Assembly: GCA_040380025.1 (NCBI GenBank)
Contig: JBEIJY010000003.1
Span: forward strand, 51,130 to 115,129
DNA length: 64,000 nucleotides
Origin: Bdellovibrionales bacterium
Lineage (GTDB): Bacteria > Bdellovibrionota > UBA1018 > CAIMNF01
Direction of reading: 5' to 3'
The notes under the pieces were generated by a model. The model searched no databases. It was not told the DNA's origin and saw only the letters and a program-made list of their open reading frames with translations. The position numbers were made by a program, and so were the translations under genes. Below are positions 9,990 to 64,000 of this stretch, piece by piece (position 1 is the stretch's first letter; each line of letters opens with the position of its first letter).

Positions 9990-10024
9990 AACCGCGCCCC
10001 TGGCAGCTTGCCGGGAGCGCGGTT
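9990..10024. terminator. GC-rich hairpin between convergent PLD and parB genes
   Basis: AACCGCGC...GCGCGGTT 8-bp stem. The flanking A-run on the plus strand gives a U-tract for the minus-strand transcript. Confidence 0.45.
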
Positions 10025-10045
10025 CGGGTTGAGTAATCTCTCGCG

Positions 10046-10942
10046 CTACTTCAGATTCGCGAGCGTGCGATCGACCGCCTCCGAGAGCCGCATCAGCTCC
10101 GCGCGCATCTGCTCCAGACGCTCGCGTCCTTCGCCGGCCTTCCAGGTGAACCCCGGGATCTTCACTTTCTTCGGAGTCACCGCATAGGTGAACGGCTTCG
10201 GCCCCGTTGCAGGCTTGCTTTGGTTTGTCTTCAGGATTCGCGCCTTCGAGATCAGCAGATCGCCCTCGTCCTCGCGCGAGGCATTGGCGATGATCGACAC
10301 ATGCTCCTCGACCGGTGCGTTCAGGAGATTCCGGAGGAGGGAGCGGTTCTTCAGGTTCTTCTCTTTCAAAAGCTCCTTGGTTTCGGCCGGAAGTCGCGTG
10401 AATCCGATGCACTCGGTGATGCGGGATTTCTTCTTGCCGAATCCGGTCGCGATCGCCTCGTGGCTCGAATACGCACCTGCGGTCAGAAGCGAGTTGTAGC
10501 CTTCGCCTTCTTCGATCGGGTGGAGGTCGACGCGGTCGAGGTTCTCGCGCAGGGCGATCTCGTGAACCGCCTTGTCGGTCGAGTTGATCACGCGCGCGGG
10601 AATCCGCTCGAGTCCGGCCAGTTTCGAGGCGCGCAGACGGCGCTCACCGGCGATCACCTTGTAGCGGTCGCCGTCTTGCACCACGAGGATGGGCTGGAGC
10701 ACGCCGTGCTCCTTGATGGAGTGGGCGAGGGCCGCGATTTCTTCGTCATCGAAATGCGTCCGCACCTGGAGCTCGGATGCGTCGACTTTTTCGACCGGGA
10801 CGAAGTTCACCAGAAACGTGGTGAGGCCCTTCAGTCCGCTGTGGGTGTTGTCGGCGCTCACCCGCGCGGTCGAGTAGAGTTGCTTCAGATATCCGCTTCC
10901 TTGGCGGGTTTTTGCTTCTTTTTTGTTGTCTTTGGTTTCCAT
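10046..10942 (-). CDS. parB: ParB/Spo0J-family partition protein
   Basis: ParB N-terminal domain with the GERRLRASKLAGL box (GERRxRA) and an HTH segment. Confidence 0.8.
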   Translation of the reverse strand: METKDNKKEAKTRQGSGYLKQLYSTARVSADNTHSGLKGLTTFLVNFVPVEKVDASELQVRTHFDDEEIAALAHSIKEHGVLQPILVVQDGDRYKVIAGERRLRASKLAGLERIPARVINSTDKAVHEIALRENLDRVDLHPIEEGEGYNSLLTAGAYSSHEAIATGFGKKKSRITECIGFTRLPAETKELLKEKNLKNRSLLRNLLNAPVEEHVSIIANASREDEGDLLISKARILKTNQSKPATGPKPFTYAVTPKKVKIPGFTWKAGEGRERLEQMRAELMRLSEAVDRTLANLK

Positions 10943-12032: not shown

Positions 12033-12111
12033 AGATTCCTCCTTGATCTGTCTCACTGAGTGTAAATCGAGAAGATCAAGAATCAATCAAAAACTAAACA
12101 AAAAGAGTAGA

Positions 12112-12232
12112 CCGGTCGCCGTGGCGACCGGTGGAGAAAATACTCTCGATGGTGTTGCGTCGGACTCAAGTCGGTCGCCGTGGCGACCGATGAAGATGGG
12201 TTACCCTGATCGGTCGCCACGGCGACCGGTGA
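12112..12232. repeat. Three copies of a 16-20 bp palindrome (CGGTCGCC-GT/AC-GGCGACCG) upstream of parA
   Basis: Copies at 12112-12131, 12171-12190 and 12211-12230 with perfect 8-9 bp inverted arms. Candidate par operator or centromere-like site. Confidence 0.6.
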
Positions 12233-13858: not shown

Positions 13859-14857
13859 TCAGCTCTGGTAGATCCGTTGGATCACCCGCTCCAGCGAGGA
13901 TTCCTGGATTCCGATATCCGCCACTTCGAAATTCGCGAGGAGCTTCTGAAAGTACTCGGTGATGCGAGAGCGGGCGATGGGGATCAGATAGGTGGTGGGG
14001 TCTTCTTCGTCCATGGTCACGGCAGAGGCATCGAGTCCGAGGGTTGTTGATACCTGTGCCGCTTCGGGCGAGCTCAAGAGCTTCACCTTGAGCGTGCATT
14101 CGTCCCGCTCGATCAGGGTCTTCGGGTTTCCATCAAAAATCAGCGAGCCCTCTTTGATCAAAAGAATGCGCTTACAGAGCTCCGAGATGTCATCCATGTT
14201 GTGACTGGTCAGGATGATCGTTGCTCCCTCCTTCTGGTTGTGGGTCCGCAAAAACTCCCGGAGCCGCTTCGAGGCCAGAACATCAAGGCCGATCGTGGGC
14301 TCATCCAAAAAGATCACCTTGGGCAGATGAAGAATCGCGCCGATCACCTCCATCTTCATTCGCTCCCCGAGTGAGAGGCGGCGAATCTGGGTGTTCAGGA
14401 GCTTCTCGACCCCGAGGAGGGCGGTAAGCTCGTCCACCCGCGTACGATACACCTCGCGGGGGATCTGATAGAGCGCGCGCAGAAGATCAAAGGCCTCGAG
14501 TGCGGGAAGATCCCACCAGAGCTGGGCCTTCTGCCCCATGACGATCGAAATCTGACGGCGGAACTCGATCGAGCGTTCGAACGGAGTGAAGCCCAGAACC
14601 CGAGCGTCTCCCGAGGTCGGGGGGATCAGGCCCGATAAGATTTTCAGGAGCGTGGTTTTGCCGGCACCGTTTGCGCCAATCAGACCGGTGAACTCTCCCT
14701 GCTGGACCTCGAACGAGACGCCCTTCAGGGCCTCATGGACTTGGTATTCCGGTCGGAACAGGAGCTTCAGGACTCCTTGAAGGCCCTCTTGTTTTTTGAC
14801 GGACTTGAAGGTGCGCCGGACATCCCGAACAAAGAGCGCAGGCTCATTCGATCTCAT
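13859..14857 (-). CDS. ABC transporter ATP-binding protein
   Basis: Walker A GANGAGKTT, ABC signature LSLGER, Walker B FLDEPT. Confidence 0.85.
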   Translation of the reverse strand: MRSNEPALFVRDVRRTFKSVKKQEGLQGVLKLLFRPEYQVHEALKGVSFEVQQGEFTGLIGANGAGKTTLLKILSGLIPPTSGDARVLGFTPFERSIEFRRQISIVMGQKAQLWWDLPALEAFDLLRALYQIPREVYRTRVDELTALLGVEKLLNTQIRRLSLGERMKMEVIGAILHLPKVIFLDEPTIGLDVLASKRLREFLRTHNQKEGATIILTSHNMDDISELCKRILLIKEGSLIFDGNPKTLIERDECTLKVKLLSSPEAAQVSTTLGLDASAVTMDEEDPTTYLIPIARSRITEYFQKLLANFEVADIGIQESSLERVIQRIYQS

Positions 14858-30092: not shown

Positions 30093-30781
30093 TCGAACCC
30101 GCTCTGGAGCGGAATCCCGTGTTGAGGGCGATCTGCGACCGGGTGAGGCGAATTCCTCCGGTTGATGCGGGCCATGACTTCGGGCATGTGCTTCGGGTGG
30201 CAAATCAGGCCGTCGCGATTTTGAGCTTTGAGACCCTCGAAGCCGAATCCAGGCCCGCTACTGCGGCCGAGATCGACGCCGTGCTTGCGGCGGCCCTTCT
30301 TCATGATTGTGTGCCGGTTCCCAAAAACTCCCCGCTCCGAAAAGAAAGCGCCCGCCTTTGCAGCGAAAAAGCCCGCGAATGGCTCTTGGAGCTGGGCTGG
30401 ACACCCGCAGAATGGATCGATCCCATCGCACAGGCGATTTTGGACCACAGCTACTCCGCGGGACGGACTCCAGAAACCCCGATCGGAAAAGCCCTGCAAG
30501 ATGCCGACCGCCTGGAGGCTTTGGGGGCGCTCGGTCTTTATCGCACGATCGCTACCGGTGTTTCGATGGGGGCGCTGTTGTTTGATCCCGAGGATCCCTG
30601 GTCGGAGCGACGCGAGCTCGACGACCGGCGGTTCACGGTGGATCATTTTTTCACCAAGCTGTTGAAGCTTCCCGCGACCTTCCAGACCCGCGCCGCGCGG
30701 GAAGAGGCCGAAAAACGCGCCCAGTTTCTTCGGGAGTTCCTCTCGGAACTCCGCCGGGAGCTCCTAAATTGCCCCCTTTGA
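30089..30781 (+). CDS. HD-domain phosphohydrolase
   Basis: GHDFGHVLRV...LLHD HD motifs. 4-nt overlap with the upstream gene. Confidence 0.65.
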   Translation: MIEPALERNPVLRAICDRVRRIPPVDAGHDFGHVLRVANQAVAILSFETLEAESRPATAAEIDAVLAAALLHDCVPVPKNSPLRKESARLCSEKAREWLLELGWTPAEWIDPIAQAILDHSYSAGRTPETPIGKALQDADRLEALGALGLYRTIATGVSMGALLFDPEDPWSERRELDDRRFTVDHFFTKLLKLPATFQTRAAREEAEKRAQFLREFLSELRRELLNCPL

Positions 30782-30805
30782 TTGCACCTGATGAAGGAAC
30801 AGGAT

Positions 30806-30926
30806 GGGGAGAGGGGGCCGGAATGATTCGATTTTTGCCGACTCTCGCGAGCGCGTGACGCGCGAAAGCGAGGCCGCACGACGCGGCTCGGAGGTAAAAA
30901 CCGAATCATTCCGGCCTCCTCTCCCC
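30806..30926 (+). ncRNA. Candidate structured RNA / cis-regulatory element, copy 1 (long outer stem enclosing a conserved 59-nt hairpin core)
   Basis: 25-bp outer stem GGGGAGAGGGGGCCGGAATGATTCG / CGAATCATTCCGGCCTCCTCTCCCC (one G-U). Core GCCGACTCTCGCGAGCGCGTGACGCGCGAAAGCGAGGCCGCACGACGCGGCTCGGAGG matches the copy at 63760-63904 at 57 of 59 positions, while the outer stems differ yet stay complementary. Confidence 0.45.
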
Positions 30927-31101
30927 GTCCCGTTCCCGAAAAAAGAGCACTCATTGGGTACAGTTCGGGAGCTCCCGCCGAGAGTTCAAACACTCTTTAC
31001 GATGCCTCAAGCCCAGATCAAATTTACGAACGGTCGGTAATTTTTCTTCAGCGCACTGCGCGAATCGTCTATAAGTGCGCGCTAAGGATTTACCCGCATC
31101 A

Positions 31102-33246
31102 ATGATCAACACCCTTTTTTTTGAGCAAAAACTCAACACCGAATGCCGTCCGGTCCGCGACCGGTTCTTTTTGGAAGTCCACTGGACCACCTTCCGGGTT
31201 GTCCTGGCCTATGCCGCATTGAACGCGGCAGGGCAGGCGTGGTTCACCTTTGCATCCCTGCTCCTCGGAATCCTCGTCCTGACTCCGCTCACGCTTGCTT
31301 TGTATCGACGCGGGCTCACGAGGCTCGCGCGCATGAGCTTCGTGCTCGGCTTTTGCTACTATGTCTTTGCCGCTTCGTTCGGTCATGGCCATCAAGGGTC
31401 ATTCGATTACTACTGTTTGCCCGGAGTGGTGGTGGCGTTTGTGTTGTTCGAACCCGGTCGTTGGCGGTGGCTCGTGCCGGGAATTTTGCTTCCGGTTCTG
31501 ACTTGGCTTGCGATTCATCAACGGTATGTTCCCGTTTTTTTGGGGGGAGGCGATGTCATCCGGCCCGGAGACGCCGATTTCGAGTTGATCAATTTTTTTG
31601 GTGCGTATCTGATGCTGGCGATCTTTGTGTACAACCTGATCCAGGCGAACCTGAGGCGCCATCGCGATCTTCGTCGTGCGAAGGGACGGATCGAGAAGTT
31701 CTTCACGCTCTCGCCGGATCTCATGTGCATTCTCGACTCGCAATCGCGGCTGATCCGGGTGAATCCGAGCTTCAGGACGATTCTGGGCTATGATGCGGGC
31801 GAGACGATCGGAAGAAAAGCGAGCGATCTCGTGCATCCCGAGGATGCGGGAGATCTGCAGGCCGAGATGGAACGGCTTTCGAGCGGGTACCGCGAATGCC
31901 GGATCCGCGCGCGGTTCCGCCACAAGAGCGGGGAGTACCGGACCCTGAGTTGGACGGCGCATGTGAACCCGGGCGAGCGCGAAGTGTTCGCCACAGGACG
32001 GGACATCACCCCGCTCATCCGGCACGAGCAGGAAATCCGCGAGCGGAAGCAGTTCCTCGAGGCCATTCTGGAACATCTTCCTCTTACGGTCATGGTCAAG
32101 GACTGTCGAGATGGCTTTCGCTTCAACCTCATGAACCGCGCAGGAGAATCACTGCTCGGGATGCCGGCGGGGAAGGTCATCGGAAAAACCCTGTTCGATC
32201 TCGCTCCGGCCGAGACAGCAGCCCATCATCGAGCGATCGACGAGCGGGTTCTCAGCGAAAAGAAGGAGTTCCGCGTCGAACGCGAGGATTTCACTCTTCC
32301 CGGAGGCACGAAGAAAAGCATCTCGATCAGCAAGGTGCCCACCTTCGACGAGAATGGCGATCCGCACCTGATCATCACCATCGTGAACGACATTACGGGA
32401 GAAATCGCCATGCAGGACGCGCTCGACCGCGAGCGCACGAAGAGCATCCAGAGCGCGAAGATGGCCACTCTGGGCGAGATGTCGGCCGGGATCGCGCACG
32501 AGATCAACAACCCTCTTGCGATCCTCTCGGGCGCGGTGCAGACGCTGGCGCGGTACCTCGATGATCCCGAAAAAATCGAATCCAGGCTCTTTGCCATGAA
32601 GACCGCGATCGACCGGATCAGCCGGATCGTCTCCGGGCTCCGCAAGTTCTCTCGAAGCGCCGATCACTCGCGAAAGGAAATTCACGATTTGCGCAAGATT
32701 CTGCGCGAGGTGCTGATTCTCGTGCAGAACCGCTCTGCGGAGTTCGCGGTGCCGGTCACGATCGAGGCCGCGACCGATGCCTTCGTTTCGTGCAACGAAA
32801 TCGAGATGCAGCAGATCTTCATCAATCTCATCAATAACGGAATTGATGCCGTCCGCGACCGCGACGAGCGCTGGGTGCGGATCCGTCTCTTCCGCAAGAA
32901 GGGACGCGTGGTGGTGCAGATCCGCGACTCCGGAAATGGAATCGATCCGGCCTGTGCCGAAAAGCTTTTTCAGCCCTTCTTCACCACCAAGCCCGTGGGA
33001 GAGGGCACCGGGCTCGGGCTCTCGATCGTGAAAGGGATTCTCGACGAGCACCATGCCTCGATCGAGCTCCTCGAAAACGACCGGAACACCTGTTTTGAGC
33101 TCGTGTTCGAAGAGGCCGAAGCCGCTCGGCGCGGACGACGGGTTCCTACTCGAGTTCTCCGAGGTTCCGAAATGCCGCAGATCGTGCGAAGTCCCCGGGA
33201 GAAAGTCCGGGCATTCCATCCGGCGGGGTACCGCGGAAGTGCCTGA
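31102..33246 (+). CDS. Membrane-anchored PAS-domain sensor histidine kinase
   Basis: N-terminal TM region and PAS repeats. H-box HEINNPLAIL. HATPase G-boxes GNGIDP and GTGLGLSIV. Confidence 0.85.
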   Translation: MINTLFFEQKLNTECRPVRDRFFLEVHWTTFRVVLAYAALNAAGQAWFTFASLLLGILVLTPLTLALYRRGLTRLARMSFVLGFCYYVFAASFGHGHQGSFDYYCLPGVVVAFVLFEPGRWRWLVPGILLPVLTWLAIHQRYVPVFLGGGDVIRPGDADFELINFFGAYLMLAIFVYNLIQANLRRHRDLRRAKGRIEKFFTLSPDLMCILDSQSRLIRVNPSFRTILGYDAGETIGRKASDLVHPEDAGDLQAEMERLSSGYRECRIRARFRHKSGEYRTLSWTAHVNPGEREVFATGRDITPLIRHEQEIRERKQFLEAILEHLPLTVMVKDCRDGFRFNLMNRAGESLLGMPAGKVIGKTLFDLAPAETAAHHRAIDERVLSEKKEFRVEREDFTLPGGTKKSISISKVPTFDENGDPHLIITIVNDITGEIAMQDALDRERTKSIQSAKMATLGEMSAGIAHEINNPLAILSGAVQTLARYLDDPEKIESRLFAMKTAIDRISRIVSGLRKFSRSADHSRKEIHDLRKILREVLILVQNRSAEFAVPVTIEAATDAFVSCNEIEMQQIFINLINNGIDAVRDRDERWVRIRLFRKKGRVVVQIRDSGNGIDPACAEKLFQPFFTTKPVGEGTGLGLSIVKGILDEHHASIELLENDRNTCFELVFEEAEAARRGRRVPTRVLRGSEMPQIVRSPREKVRAFHPAGYRGSA

Positions 33247-46211: not shown

Positions 46212-47189
46212 CTACCGGGAATCGCTTTGATCCAGAAACCTCAAGATTTCCTCAGTGCCCTGCAGGCTCTTGATTCCGTCCCACCACGGCGCATTTTTGC
46301 GCGAGTGCAGATATCGCGCCCATTGTTTGATCCGGTTCCCCGAGGGCTGGAGCCGGGAGTACTCCCGAAACACCCGCGCCCAGGAGCGGGGTTGATCATC
46401 ATCAGGAAAACGAAGCGGATCCGGAGTTTCTTGAACCGGAATCCCGAGCTCCCGCCGCATTTCTTCGGCGAGATTCGGCACGGCCAGCGCACCCCGCCCG
46501 ATCATGAAGTGAATCGCCCCGGTCTCTTCGCGGCACCGCCGGAAGTCCTCGATCGTCCAGAGCTCCCCGTTCGCGACCACGGGAATCGAGAGCGCCTGTG
46601 CCACCCGTCCGATGGGGCGCCAGTATGCCGGGGGCTGGTATCCTTGGGTTTTCGTGCGTCCGTGGATGGTGATCCAGCTCGCGCCGCCTTGTTCGGCTCG
46701 ACGCGCGTTCTCGTCGATCACAGATGGATCATCAAACCCGAGCCGCATTTTGGCACTCACCGGAAACCGCGCCGGAACCGCATCCCGTACCGCCCGCACG
46801 ATGGCCTCGATTCGTTCAGGAAACCGAAGCAACGTCGCGCCCCCGTCATTGCGATTCACGGTGGGGGCGGGACAGCCGAAGTTCAGGTCGATTCCGGTGG
46901 CACCGGCCTCGATCGCGGCGACGGCGCTCTCGGCCATCCGGCCCGGGTGGCCCCCCAGAATCTGCACCTGGACAGGAATCCCCGAGGAGGTTCGGGCATT
47001 CTGCCGGAGTTCGGGAATGTGCCGCAAAAACGCCTTGGGCCCGAGGGCTTGCATGCTGACGCGGATGAACTCGCTCACGCAATAGTCATAAAAACCGGTG
47101 CGGGTGATCAGTTCCCGAAATGGGGCATCGGTGACCCCTTCCATCGGGGCCAGAATGACTGCGGGTTGTCCTGGTTTCAAAAAGCTCAT
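46212..47189 (-). CDS. dusC: tRNA-dihydrouridine synthase (DusC-like)
   Basis: LAPMEGVTD...SEFIRV and NFGCP motifs. Confidence 0.7.
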   Translation of the reverse strand: MSFLKPGQPAVILAPMEGVTDAPFRELITRTGFYDYCVSEFIRVSMQALGPKAFLRHIPELRQNARTSSGIPVQVQILGGHPGRMAESAVAAIEAGATGIDLNFGCPAPTVNRNDGGATLLRFPERIEAIVRAVRDAVPARFPVSAKMRLGFDDPSVIDENARRAEQGGASWITIHGRTKTQGYQPPAYWRPIGRVAQALSIPVVANGELWTIEDFRRCREETGAIHFMIGRGALAVPNLAEEMRRELGIPVQETPDPLRFPDDDQPRSWARVFREYSRLQPSGNRIKQWARYLHSRKNAPWWDGIKSLQGTEEILRFLDQSDSR

Positions 47190-63194: not shown

Positions 63195-63677
63195 TCAGTG
63201 GCAGGGGCCGAGGTAATCGGCGACGGGAGCCAAGGGTCTTTCCTGGATGGTTCGAGGAGCCTCGAACGATCGCTCGAAGCGAAGGCGAGATTCCGCGAGC
63301 GGAAAGTGAAGGCCCGGGGCCTGGAGGCTTGCCGTGGCCGGAATTCCGTTCGGACCAGGAGCAAAAAGCCCGCGCAGGGAGGAGAATCCGATCGAGAGTC
63401 CCGAGCAGGTCGGGATGCTTCCCGGCTGATCGTCTGATGGAGCGAATTCGACACGAAACGCGCAGGTGGAGCCGTCTTCGACGACGGTGCCTGAAATCGC
63501 ATGCGAGGGCGCTGTTCGAGGCTCCGGATTCACCCGGAGCAGAAAGTGCTTTTCTTCTCCGGTCGGAAGCACGAAGTCCAGCGAGTATTCCCGGATCGTG
63601 GGGGTGAAGGGGGTTTGGGCGGAGCTATCCGCGATTCCCCCGAGCAATACCAGAACCAACCAAGTCATCATCCTCAT
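63195..63677 (-). CDS. Secreted hypothetical protein
   Basis: Signal peptide MRMMTWLVLVLLGGIADSSAQ. The ORF could extend to 63719. Confidence 0.45.
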   Translation of the reverse strand: MRMMTWLVLVLLGGIADSSAQTPFTPTIREYSLDFVLPTGEEKHFLLRVNPEPRTAPSHAISGTVVEDGSTCAFRVEFAPSDDQPGSIPTCSGLSIGFSSLRGLFAPGPNGIPATASLQAPGLHFPLAESRLRFERSFEAPRTIQERPLAPVADYLGPCH

Positions 63678-63759
63678 CCGGCGCGCAAAATACCGGAAAA
63701 TCCGCGCGGAATCAAGCAAGAATGAGAGAAGCCCCGTCCGATTCGTCGTGTTGGGAAAT

Positions 63760-63904
63760 GGAATCCTCTTTGAGCCAGGGCCGGCACATAAAAAGAGGGT
63801 TCGCCTCCGAGCCGCGTCCTGCGGCCTCGCTTTCGCGCATCACGCGCTCGCGAGAGTCGGCAACCCCTCTTTTGATGTGCCGGCCCTGACTCAAAGAGGA
63901 TTCC
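63760..63904 (-). ncRNA. Candidate structured RNA / cis-regulatory element, copy 2
   Basis: 40-bp outer stem (GGAATCCTCTTTGAG...AAAAGAGGG / CCCCTCTTTT...CAAAGAGGATTCC) enclosing the same 59-nt core as copy 1. Same orientation relative to the downstream (minus-strand) gene. Confidence 0.45.
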
Positions 63905-63942
63905 TTCACCTCGTCCCGACGAAGCGGAACGGGGATCACTTT

Positions 63943-64000
63943 TTCTTGAAGAGTGCTTCGGCCGCGGCTTTCAGGGCATCCTTCTTCGCGCCGGATTGCC
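63943..64000 (-). CDS. 3' end of an unidentified minus-strand gene (partial)
   Basis: Reverse-strand reading ends ...ALKAAAEALFKKK*. Confidence 0.25.

Follow-up and report, generated by a model that had tools for sequence, protein, structure and literature searches.

The element described here lies on the minus strand near the end of the window, by which we mean the whole stretch of 64,000 nucleotides that was analysed. On this strand the order is carB, a small CxxC-protein gene, the hairpin, a gene for a 160-aa protein, greA and recG. The features of the locus, and those of the partner copy in the window, are the following.

63936-64000, minus strand: 3' end of the upstream small CxxC-protein gene (stop codon 63936-63938), which exits through the window end.
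63917-63948, minus strand: 5' side of an outer imperfect stem (32-nt repeat, 75%, and fold), overlapping the stop codon of the CxxC gene (63936-63938) and its last codons.
63859-63904, minus strand: 5' arm of a near-perfect stem with locus-specific sequence (inverted repeat and fold).
63806-63858, minus strand: conserved 53-nt core, a three-way junction (pattern match, alignments and RNAalifold).
63855-63858, minus strand: 5' junction of the core, GACU.
63826-63854, minus strand: core hairpin A, CUCGC-GA-GCGCG-UGA-UGCGC-GAAA-GCGAG.
63811-63825, minus strand: core hairpin B, GCCGC-AGGAC-GCGGC.
63806-63810, minus strand: 3' junction of the core, UCGGA.
63760-63805, minus strand: 3' arm of the near-perfect stem (inverted repeat and fold).
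63717-63748, minus strand: 3' side of the outer imperfect stem (inverted repeat and fold).
63687-63715, minus strand: weak promoter-like sequence TTGATT-17 nt-TATTTT, read by eye, for the 160-aa gene.
63195-63677, minus strand: downstream gene of the 160-aa protein with a signal-peptide-like N-terminus, separate from the element.
30752-30980, plus strand: copy 1 of the element, with its core at 30837-30894 (pattern match, repeat and fold).
30752-30839 and 30893-30980, plus strand: arms of copy 1, 88 nt, 76% complementary.

The arms of the element at 63760-63904, hereafter copy 2, are 46 nt each (63760-63805 and 63859-63904), 91% complementary and separated by a gap of 53 nt, and an outer arm pair, 63717-63748 with 63917-63948 (32 nt, 75% complementary), lengthens the hairpin. 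The RNA fold of the minus strand between 63700 and 63960 reached -153.3 kcal/mol (z = -11.2), which none of 200 shuffled sequences equalled, and that of the plus strand -142.6 kcal/mol. For copy 1, with its arms of 88 nt, the fold was -158.8 kcal/mol (z = -14). No other inverted repeat of the 64-kb window comes near the two copies in length, the arms of all others being at most 24 nt long, and on this ground a general abundance of long hairpins in the genome, as possible targets for an insertion of the core, was rejected. The initial annotation had noted one C-A mispair of the outer stem that becomes a G-U pair on the gene strand. This was right in kind, yet there are two such positions: on the gene (minus) strand, the 46-bp stem of copy 2 consists of 42 Watson-Crick pairs, two G-U pairs (positions 4 and 31 counted from the junction) and two true mismatches, which are repaired on neither strand.

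A degenerate pattern of the core (58 nt) matched the window only at 30837-30894 (+) and 63804-63861 (-), with no mismatch at either site, where the number of matches expected by chance is zero. As the two sites are identical at 56 of 58 positions, the hairpin is indeed a second copy of the element previously seen at 30806-30926, and the claim that both copies have the same orientation relative to their local genes was also confirmed.

Copies outside the window were searched for at the level of DNA and of protein. The exact-pattern scan of GTDB genomes yielded one true copy, in a Bdellovibrionales MAG (L002), and that of JGI metagenomes another (L005); the remaining matches were attributed to chance, those in GTDB (L001 and L003) lying within coding sequence and that in JGI (L004) within a gene. 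Protein databases searched with translations of the core returned the gene-caller ORFs P0241, P0242, P0244 and P0245, of which P0244 led to the locus L019, belonging to the same ENA sample as the relative L018. At this locus the covariance model identified two copies, 4.2 kb apart, at 10003-10107 (c6) and 14203-14306 (c8). Over approximately 258 kb of sequence (the window and its relatives) the covariance model revealed no further or degenerate copies, and a 16-bit match at 46655-46747 proved to be coding sequence. No copy was found in viral contigs by exact-pattern scans or in plasmids and phages by BLAST.

Eight copies of the family were thus found, from four or more Bdellovibrionales-type genomes. 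Six are available as DNA, namely c1 and c2 (copies 1 and 2 of the window), c3 and c4 (in L002 and L005) and c6 and c8 (in L019), while c5 (P0242, fused to a GIY-YIG domain) and c7 (P0245) are seen solely as read-through ORFs. It is probably under-counted, because the short-read assembly L006 breaks inside the core. The whole window gave no match to Rfam 15 at gathering thresholds; at E <= 10 the best match was a plant miRNA-precursor model with 45.5 bits against a threshold of 142, which reflects a generic long hairpin. The element is a previously uncatalogued hairpin family in Bdellovibrio-like bacteria.

Hairpin adapters or amplification chimeras can produce palindromes with a constant centre, and a chance similarity or an assembly or chimera artefact, e.g., a fold-back read, was therefore considered. 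The probability of this explanation is practically negligible. The arms do not match perfectly and run out into ordinary genes on either side, compensatory changes separate the copies, no core match is expected by chance, and the element is found in independent assemblies from Logan (L006), JGI (P0241 and P0245), ENA (L019) and an NCBI MAG (L002). With regard to copy 2, the independent Logan contig L006 terminates within the core, and P0241, on a JGI contig, is the copy 2 read-through ORF of a near-identical strain with one amino-acid difference. As these two sources show it independently, copy 2 is real and not an assembly artefact.

All copies have the same layout on the sense strand, which begins with the outer stem, G A N U, hairpin A and hairpin B and ends with N N N' G A and the outer stem. 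The consensus of hairpin A is CUCGC-GA-GCGCR-KGA-YGCGC-GAAA-GCGAG, and that of hairpin B is GCSGC, a 5-nt loop and GCSGY. The core alignment of four copies is gapless, and RNAalifold, which was given no structure, returned the same three-way junction. In the alignment of six copies (30815-30917 (+) and 63781-63883 (-) of the window, L002, L005 and two in L019), 95.9% of the cells are paired and 25 pairs are changed on both sides, a result reached in 0 of 500 shuffles and not approached by any slid register. In the core of these six copies all pair-cells (96/96) are paired; three pairs covary, and on the sense strand there are five G-U but no A-C cells. Pair 41-45 occurs as G-C, G-U or A-U, pair 61-71 as C-G or G-C, pair 28-76 as C-G or A-U and pair 59-73 as G-C or G-U, and the remaining variation is confined to the two hairpin loops or the linker columns 74-75. 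No copy departs from G26 A27, G77 A78, the C25-G79 pair or the GA/GAAA internal loop. The substitutions in the core are of the kind that constraint on a structured nucleic acid leaves.

The core has a GC content of about 70% in every copy, and the arms share the local base composition. On its own the core does not exceed shuffled GC-rich sequence in stability (z = -1.2 to -2.3), so its fold is supported by a handful of covariation events; the full hairpins are strongly non-random in all six copies (z = -5.4 to -14). The core can be read without a stop in five or six frames. In the gene-finder frame almost all differences between copies are non-synonymous (T/M, V/R, R/G, R/C, GS/RR) and track the base pairs, and a small protein-coding gene was rejected for this reason.

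The initial annotation had assigned the element to the 5' leader of the downstream secreted-protein gene, the product of which (160 aa) belongs to no Pfam family. A cis-regulatory leader, attenuator or riboswitch-like element for this gene agrees with the position of copy 2, which stands 83 nt in front of the first ATG (63677) and has the orientation of the gene, and copy 1 is likewise co-oriented with its downstream gene. The comparison with relatives, however, makes this assignment extremely unlikely. The GreA protein of the window has a 100% identical match on a 115.8-kb contig and is 88% identical to a protein labelled "MAG: ... [Bdellovibrionales bacterium]". In L007-L010 (GreA 88% identical) the CxxC gene is directly followed by greA, while in L011-L015 (GreA 91-94% identical) the secreted-protein gene is present, preceded by a spacer of 120-167 nt that contains no core. 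The element is thus not a fixture of the secreted-protein gene, whose orthologues in L011-L015 do without it. The small CxxC gene follows carB in all relatives, and the element is co-oriented with it. In addition, the sequence TTGATT-17-TATTTT sits in a block (cttgattccg...) that is common to L013 and lies 3' of the hairpin, so that the hairpin is possibly outside the 5' UTR of the 160-aa gene; this sequence scores 8/12, below the threshold of the consensus scan, which called no promoter there. No Rfam cis-regulatory family was matched either.

The gene contexts of the eight copies, with the sense strand of the element written from left to right, are as follows.

c1: HD gene upstream and histidine-kinase gene downstream, both co-directional with the element.
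c2: CxxC gene upstream and secreted-protein gene downstream, both co-directional.
c3: GNAT acetyltransferase upstream, co-directional; valS downstream, convergent.
c4: lipoprotein-like ORF upstream, reversed and pointing away from the element; aminotransferase downstream, convergent.
c5: GIY-YIG gene downstream, co-directional.
c6: 72-aa ORF upstream, co-directional; GNAT acetyltransferase downstream, convergent.
c7: nadA upstream, co-directional; 73-aa ORF downstream, convergent.
c8: exbD upstream, co-directional; 73-aa ORF downstream, convergent.

Among the seven copies with a known upstream neighbour, to which the orientation counts apply (all but c5), six are co-oriented with the upstream gene (c1, c2, c3, c6, c7 and c8), the exception being c4, which is antisense to both neighbouring genes. 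The one-sided binomial probability of this bias, calculated by hand, is about 0.06. Four of the seven copies (c3, c6, c7 and c8) occupy a slot between convergent genes, none lies between divergent genes, and in c1, c2 and c3 the stop codon of a neighbouring gene is found within the stem or at its base. The genes adjoining different copies are unrelated, and the downstream neighbours include no recurrent gene class of the kind served by a riboswitch or 5' leader. This lack of any common feature among the neighbours excludes a riboswitch or leader that is specific to one gene. The proposed link to the downstream gene is unsupported for the same reason, the more so as four copies face a convergent gene, leaving nothing downstream to regulate, and one is antisense to both neighbours.

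In its place immediately behind stop codons, frequently with a convergent gene beyond, and in its GC-rich hairpin of great stability the element recalls an intrinsic terminator, and it could be an ordinary, possibly bidirectional Rho-independent terminator that is merely long. We consider this very unlikely. In the terminator scan of four copies no T-run followed the base of the stem directly on either strand, the sequences 3' of the stems being AUUUCCC, GUCCCGUU, CGGCUCC and GGGCAUA, and the only match of the scan in the region was an internal sub-hairpin. The stems of 25-90 bp, many times longer than those of terminators, and the conserved 53-nt branched cap are far outside the usual terminator anatomy, and the same core recurs in different genomes. 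The fallback offered in the initial annotation, an action on the upstream gene, accords with the data better than the leader does: the co-orientation of six copies out of seven and the position abutting or overlapping the stop codon agree with it, but without a U-tract the element is not a canonical terminator. Because the stems lack this tract, classical termination is not expected, and a role at the 3' end would be an analogy.

The sense strand of the element is distinguished from its complement in two respects. The six-copy alignment contains 11 G-U cells against two A-C cells on this strand, and in the four copies tested the sense strand is 2-12 kcal/mol more stable than the antisense strand. 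The G-U excess and the better fold favour a single-stranded form of the sense strand, probably RNA. The RNA-level structure claimed earlier is supported to this extent, although the strand bias is compatible with RNA and with single-stranded DNA. Both the orientation bias and the G-U bias are only suggestive, several G-U cells being shared by descent. Since the GC skew is positive throughout the window and copy 1 lies on the plus and copy 2 on the minus strand, the orientation of these two copies is not tied to the direction of replication.

A structured RNA of its own is one way to account for such a strand. The element may be an independent small RNA whose core is a module released from, or displayed on, the long double-stranded stem, such as a k-turn-like or k-junction-like site for a protein, which would act in trans or as a scaffold and would be made from its own promoter or by 3'-UTR processing. 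The core changes only in loops and linkers or through compensatory or wobble pairs, it is highly conserved across genomes with differing flank GC, and c4 retains the sense-strand G-U although its flanking genes run in the opposite direction. The likeness to k-turns and k-junctions consists of invariant G-A and A-G dinucleotides that face each other beside a short variable linker and a C-G-closed helix in a three-way junction. In the alignment, G26 A27, G77 A78 and C25-G79 do not vary, the linker columns 74-75 are variable, and G59-C73 is the closing pair of hairpin B. The facing GA dinucleotides may form tandem sheared pairs as in k-turns or k-junctions, with which the invariant GA/GAAA loop would also be compatible. 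This likeness is at the level of sequence only, and column 76, which would hold the flipped-out base, pairs and covaries with column 28. The hammerhead ribozyme, a three-way junction with the core CUGANGA ... GAAA ... UH, was rejected: the junction strands are GACU, none and UCGGA, and the CUCGCGA before the inner hairpin lacks G5 and A6; none of the Rfam ribozyme models scores. An independent small RNA is, on balance, rather unlikely. No promoter-like site was found upstream of the copies on the sense strand in the four-copy scan, and the element has no Rfam relative. Moreover, an old RNA family would usually show more variation in its paired stems than the core does, and several copies per genome with locus-specific stems are atypical for a trans-acting sRNA.

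The arms have a history different from that of the core. Among c1-c4 the centres are 91-97% identical and the cores differ by about 3-10%, whereas no significant resemblance of more than about 7 nt was seen among the arms (z between -1.6 and 2.4), and homology among the arms of c1, c2, c3 and c4 was accordingly rejected. The stems range from 25 to 90 bp in length with a sequence that differs at each site, and in c3 the arms have a GC content of 40-47% against 70% for the core. The left arm of copy 1 includes the final 10 codons of the HD-domain gene. As the ...ELRREL end of this gene is conserved among homologues, the distal right arm is the in-register inverted copy of native coding sequence. 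In L016 and L017 a convergent peptidase gene comes 3 nt after the HD gene, and in L018 a 238-aa ORF stands between the HD gene and that peptidase gene; compared with L016-L018, the window has the element and a histidine-kinase gene inserted after the HD gene. The direct repeat at the borders of the kinase insertion is a single 12-mer, which by our estimate is compatible with chance.

Two pairs of copies share more than the core. Between c6 and c8, 18 of 24 arm positions are shared, three compensatory transitions are seen, and the likeness extends about 35 nt beyond the right arm. By back-translation, c5 has arms of the c1 type, in which all 36 arm pairs can be Watson-Crick; relative to c1 three adjacent pairs are changed on both sides, and the three non-Watson-Crick positions of c1 are standard pairs in c5. 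In both comparisons the divergence of the arms is about three times that of the core. These pairs suggest that whole hairpins can be duplicated or inherited as units. For c1 and c2, a core difference of 3% cannot yield unrelated arms gradually, and their arms were thus replaced or newly built. A purely vertical history of an RNA gene does not account for unrelated arms on near-identical cores. The template-switch correction of inverted repeats is a documented process in bacteria, and it would yield mirrored, clustered changes and outward growth of the palindrome (PMC5941160); we infer that it may act on the arms of the element. As quasipalindrome correction (PMC5941160), it accounts for the mirrored clustered changes in the arms and for the growth of the palindrome into neighbouring coding sequence, but it is a mutational process and not an element family, and it leaves the shared 53-nt core unexplained.

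Arms of this kind also suit a selfish DNA palindrome, in which the core would be a folded single-stranded or duplex DNA site for a transposase, recombinase or nuclease encoded in trans. The arms would then be left over from copying of the flank by hairpin priming or template switching, and any effects on RNA would be incidental. The REP elements with their RAYT and the end hairpins of IS200/IS605 are comparable cases. The presence or absence of copies between close relatives, the whole hairpin duplicated within one genome (c6/c8), the mostly unrelated arms of local composition, among them the c1 arm with inverted native coding sequence, and the antisense position of c4 with respect to neighbouring genes all point in this direction, as do overall arm energies that are approximately equal on both strands in c1, c3 and c4. 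The paired core is nearly invariant across genomes, as it would be for sequence-specific recognition by a protein, and its paired sequences would also fit recognition by a DNA-binding enzyme. Nevertheless, we regard a selfish DNA palindrome as an improbable, if serious, alternative. Beside the copies, housekeeping genes were seen but no transposase, recombinase or RAYT-like gene, although an enzyme acting in trans could lie elsewhere. The element lacks target-site duplications and sharp ends, and the two window copies lie opposite each other with respect to the constant GC skew, which shows no lock to a replication strand. Neither the G-U excess of the sense strand nor the co-orientation with the upstream gene is predicted by selfish DNA.

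The element was compared with the known kinds of bacterial interspersed palindromes. REP, BIME and REPIN sequences are extragenic palindromes of proteobacteria that are located after stop codons and between convergent genes and whose copy number varies among relatives; REP elements are transcribed as the 3' tails of mRNA and can stabilise the upstream message. The present element resembles REP and REPIN in its post-stop or convergent position and in its presence/absence polymorphism. In REP and REPIN, however, the arms are conserved and the loop or spacer is variable, while here the apex is conserved and the arms vary (those of c1-c4 being unrelated, in contrast to their near-identical centres), and stems of 25-90 bp stand against the approximately 15-35 nt of REP. 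ERIC/IRU, Correia (CREE/NEMIS), RUP and BOX elements are co-transcribed palindromes of approximately 100-250 nt, some of which are cleaved by RNase III. Hairpins of the ERIC and Correia type can be processed and alter mRNA stability, and their presence is polymorphic. They are conserved over their full length and have defined terminal inverted repeats and usually target-site duplications, whereas only the central 53-70 nt, approximately, are common to all copies of our element, the ends of which are fuzzy, with no duplication seen. Since its arms vary and it has no terminal repeats accompanied by target duplications, the element is outside the REP/REPIN, ERIC and Correia kinds. It does not have the features of a MITE either: complementarity fades outward, no flanking direct repeats were found, and the arms differ between most copies. 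The attC sites of integrons are imperfect palindromes 3' of ORFs that function as folded single strands, adjoin variable genes and form arrays beside an integrase gene. They have a conserved base and a variable centre, unlike the conserved apex of our element, copies of which are singletons among housekeeping genes with no integrase nearby.

The explanation that we prefer, tentatively and with somewhat less than even confidence, is that of an interspersed 3'-UTR hairpin that would form or protect the 3' end of the upstream mRNA and carry a conserved recognition module. According to this explanation, the element would be transcribed as the 3' tail of the upstream message, which for copy 2 would be that of the small CxxC gene after carB. 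Its hairpin of approximately 235 nt would constitute a very stable 3' structure that defines, protects or processes the transcript end, either as a barrier to exonucleases or as a substrate of a double-strand-specific RNase, and it might insulate this end from the next transcription unit. The conserved junction would be the recognition module for a protein partner. From the gene contexts, copy 2 would most likely act on the small CxxC gene and not on the secreted-protein gene. The family itself would spread as DNA, with whole hairpins duplicated and copies present or absent between close relatives, and the arms would be kept complementary through compensatory or templated (template-switch) changes and could grow into the local flank.

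Along with the 3'-UTR hairpin we considered, as a less probable and rather speculative possibility, that the 53-nt core is a mobile structured module that seeds its own long hairpin from the flank. The core with a short clamp would land behind a gene, and the flank would be copied in inverted form by hairpin-primed or template-switch synthesis. The result would be a locus-specific double-stranded stem presenting the invariant G-A-bounded junction to a dedicated protein. Should such self-seeding be true, the family would represent a previously undescribed class of bacterial 3'-UTR RNA element and a new manner in which a repeat assembles itself out of host sequence.

If the 3'-UTR hairpin is the correct reading, the element is an unusual bacterial interspersed palindrome, the layout of which is the reverse of the REP type, with a conserved apex and locus-specific arms. 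It would then also be a candidate for a new RNA motif or protein-recognition module, which can be tested, and a natural case in which local sequence, even the 3' end of a coding gene, serves to build and maintain palindrome arms. Its carriers belong to a poorly studied lineage of predatory bacteria. The element can also fragment metagenome-assembled genomes, as short-read assemblies break inside it (L006).

The octamer GCGAAAGC, a "mini-hairpin" known from the origin of phage G4 (PMC13037366), is present in the core. It occurs eight times in the window, and for this reason it was given no weight.

The genes considered beside the two copies of the hairpin repeat in the window are as follows:

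31075-33246, PAS-HisKA-HATPase sensor kinase gene, adjoining element copy 1
63195-63677, minus strand, gene for a protein of 160 aa whose N-terminus is signal-peptide-like and which has no Pfam family
63936-64000, minus strand, 3' end of the gene for the CxxC protein, which continues beyond the window (9672-9959 in the relative's locus L008 and 4265-4549 in L011)

The 94-95-aa protein with several CxxC motifs, which has no recorded Pfam family, is encoded directly 3' of carB in every relative examined. The gene for the 160-aa protein is confined to the closest relatives (L011-L015, GreA 91-94% identical) and is missing from L007-L010 (GreA 88% identical), and its intergenic slot is therefore a hotspot of gene gain and loss. 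Beside copy 1, the sensor kinase gene is missing at the orthologous HD/Peptidase_C92 junction in the relatives' loci L016-L018. The 3' tail of the kinase ORF shares an overlap of ~98 nt with the convergent peptidase gene, which suggests that the kinase gene is a recent insertion.

One relative's locus (L019) carries two copies of the element, at 10003-10107 and 14203-14306, with 4.2 kb between them. The arms of both copies are homologous, and the flank similarity runs ~35 nt past the right arm, which is evidence for duplication of the whole hairpin.

An independent short-read assembly of this same stretch stops in the middle of the core: positions 1-26 of the Logan contig L006 correspond to window ~63804-63829. 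The palindrome of the element makes assemblers break, so the element family is likely both to be under-represented in public assemblies and to fragment them. On a contig of 60,329 nt, a gene caller joined the read-through of element copy c5 to a small GIY-YIG nuclease-domain protein (P0242). As neither the window nor any of the loci fetched contains a GIY-YIG gene, this association of the element with GIY-YIG is probably coincidental.

Elsewhere in the window, a perfect 20-bp palindrome (ACCGGTCGCCGTGGCGACCG and close variants) occurs three times in the 120 nt at 12111-12230, ahead of an ATG at ~12238. The trio resembles a triple operator to which a dimeric regulator would bind.
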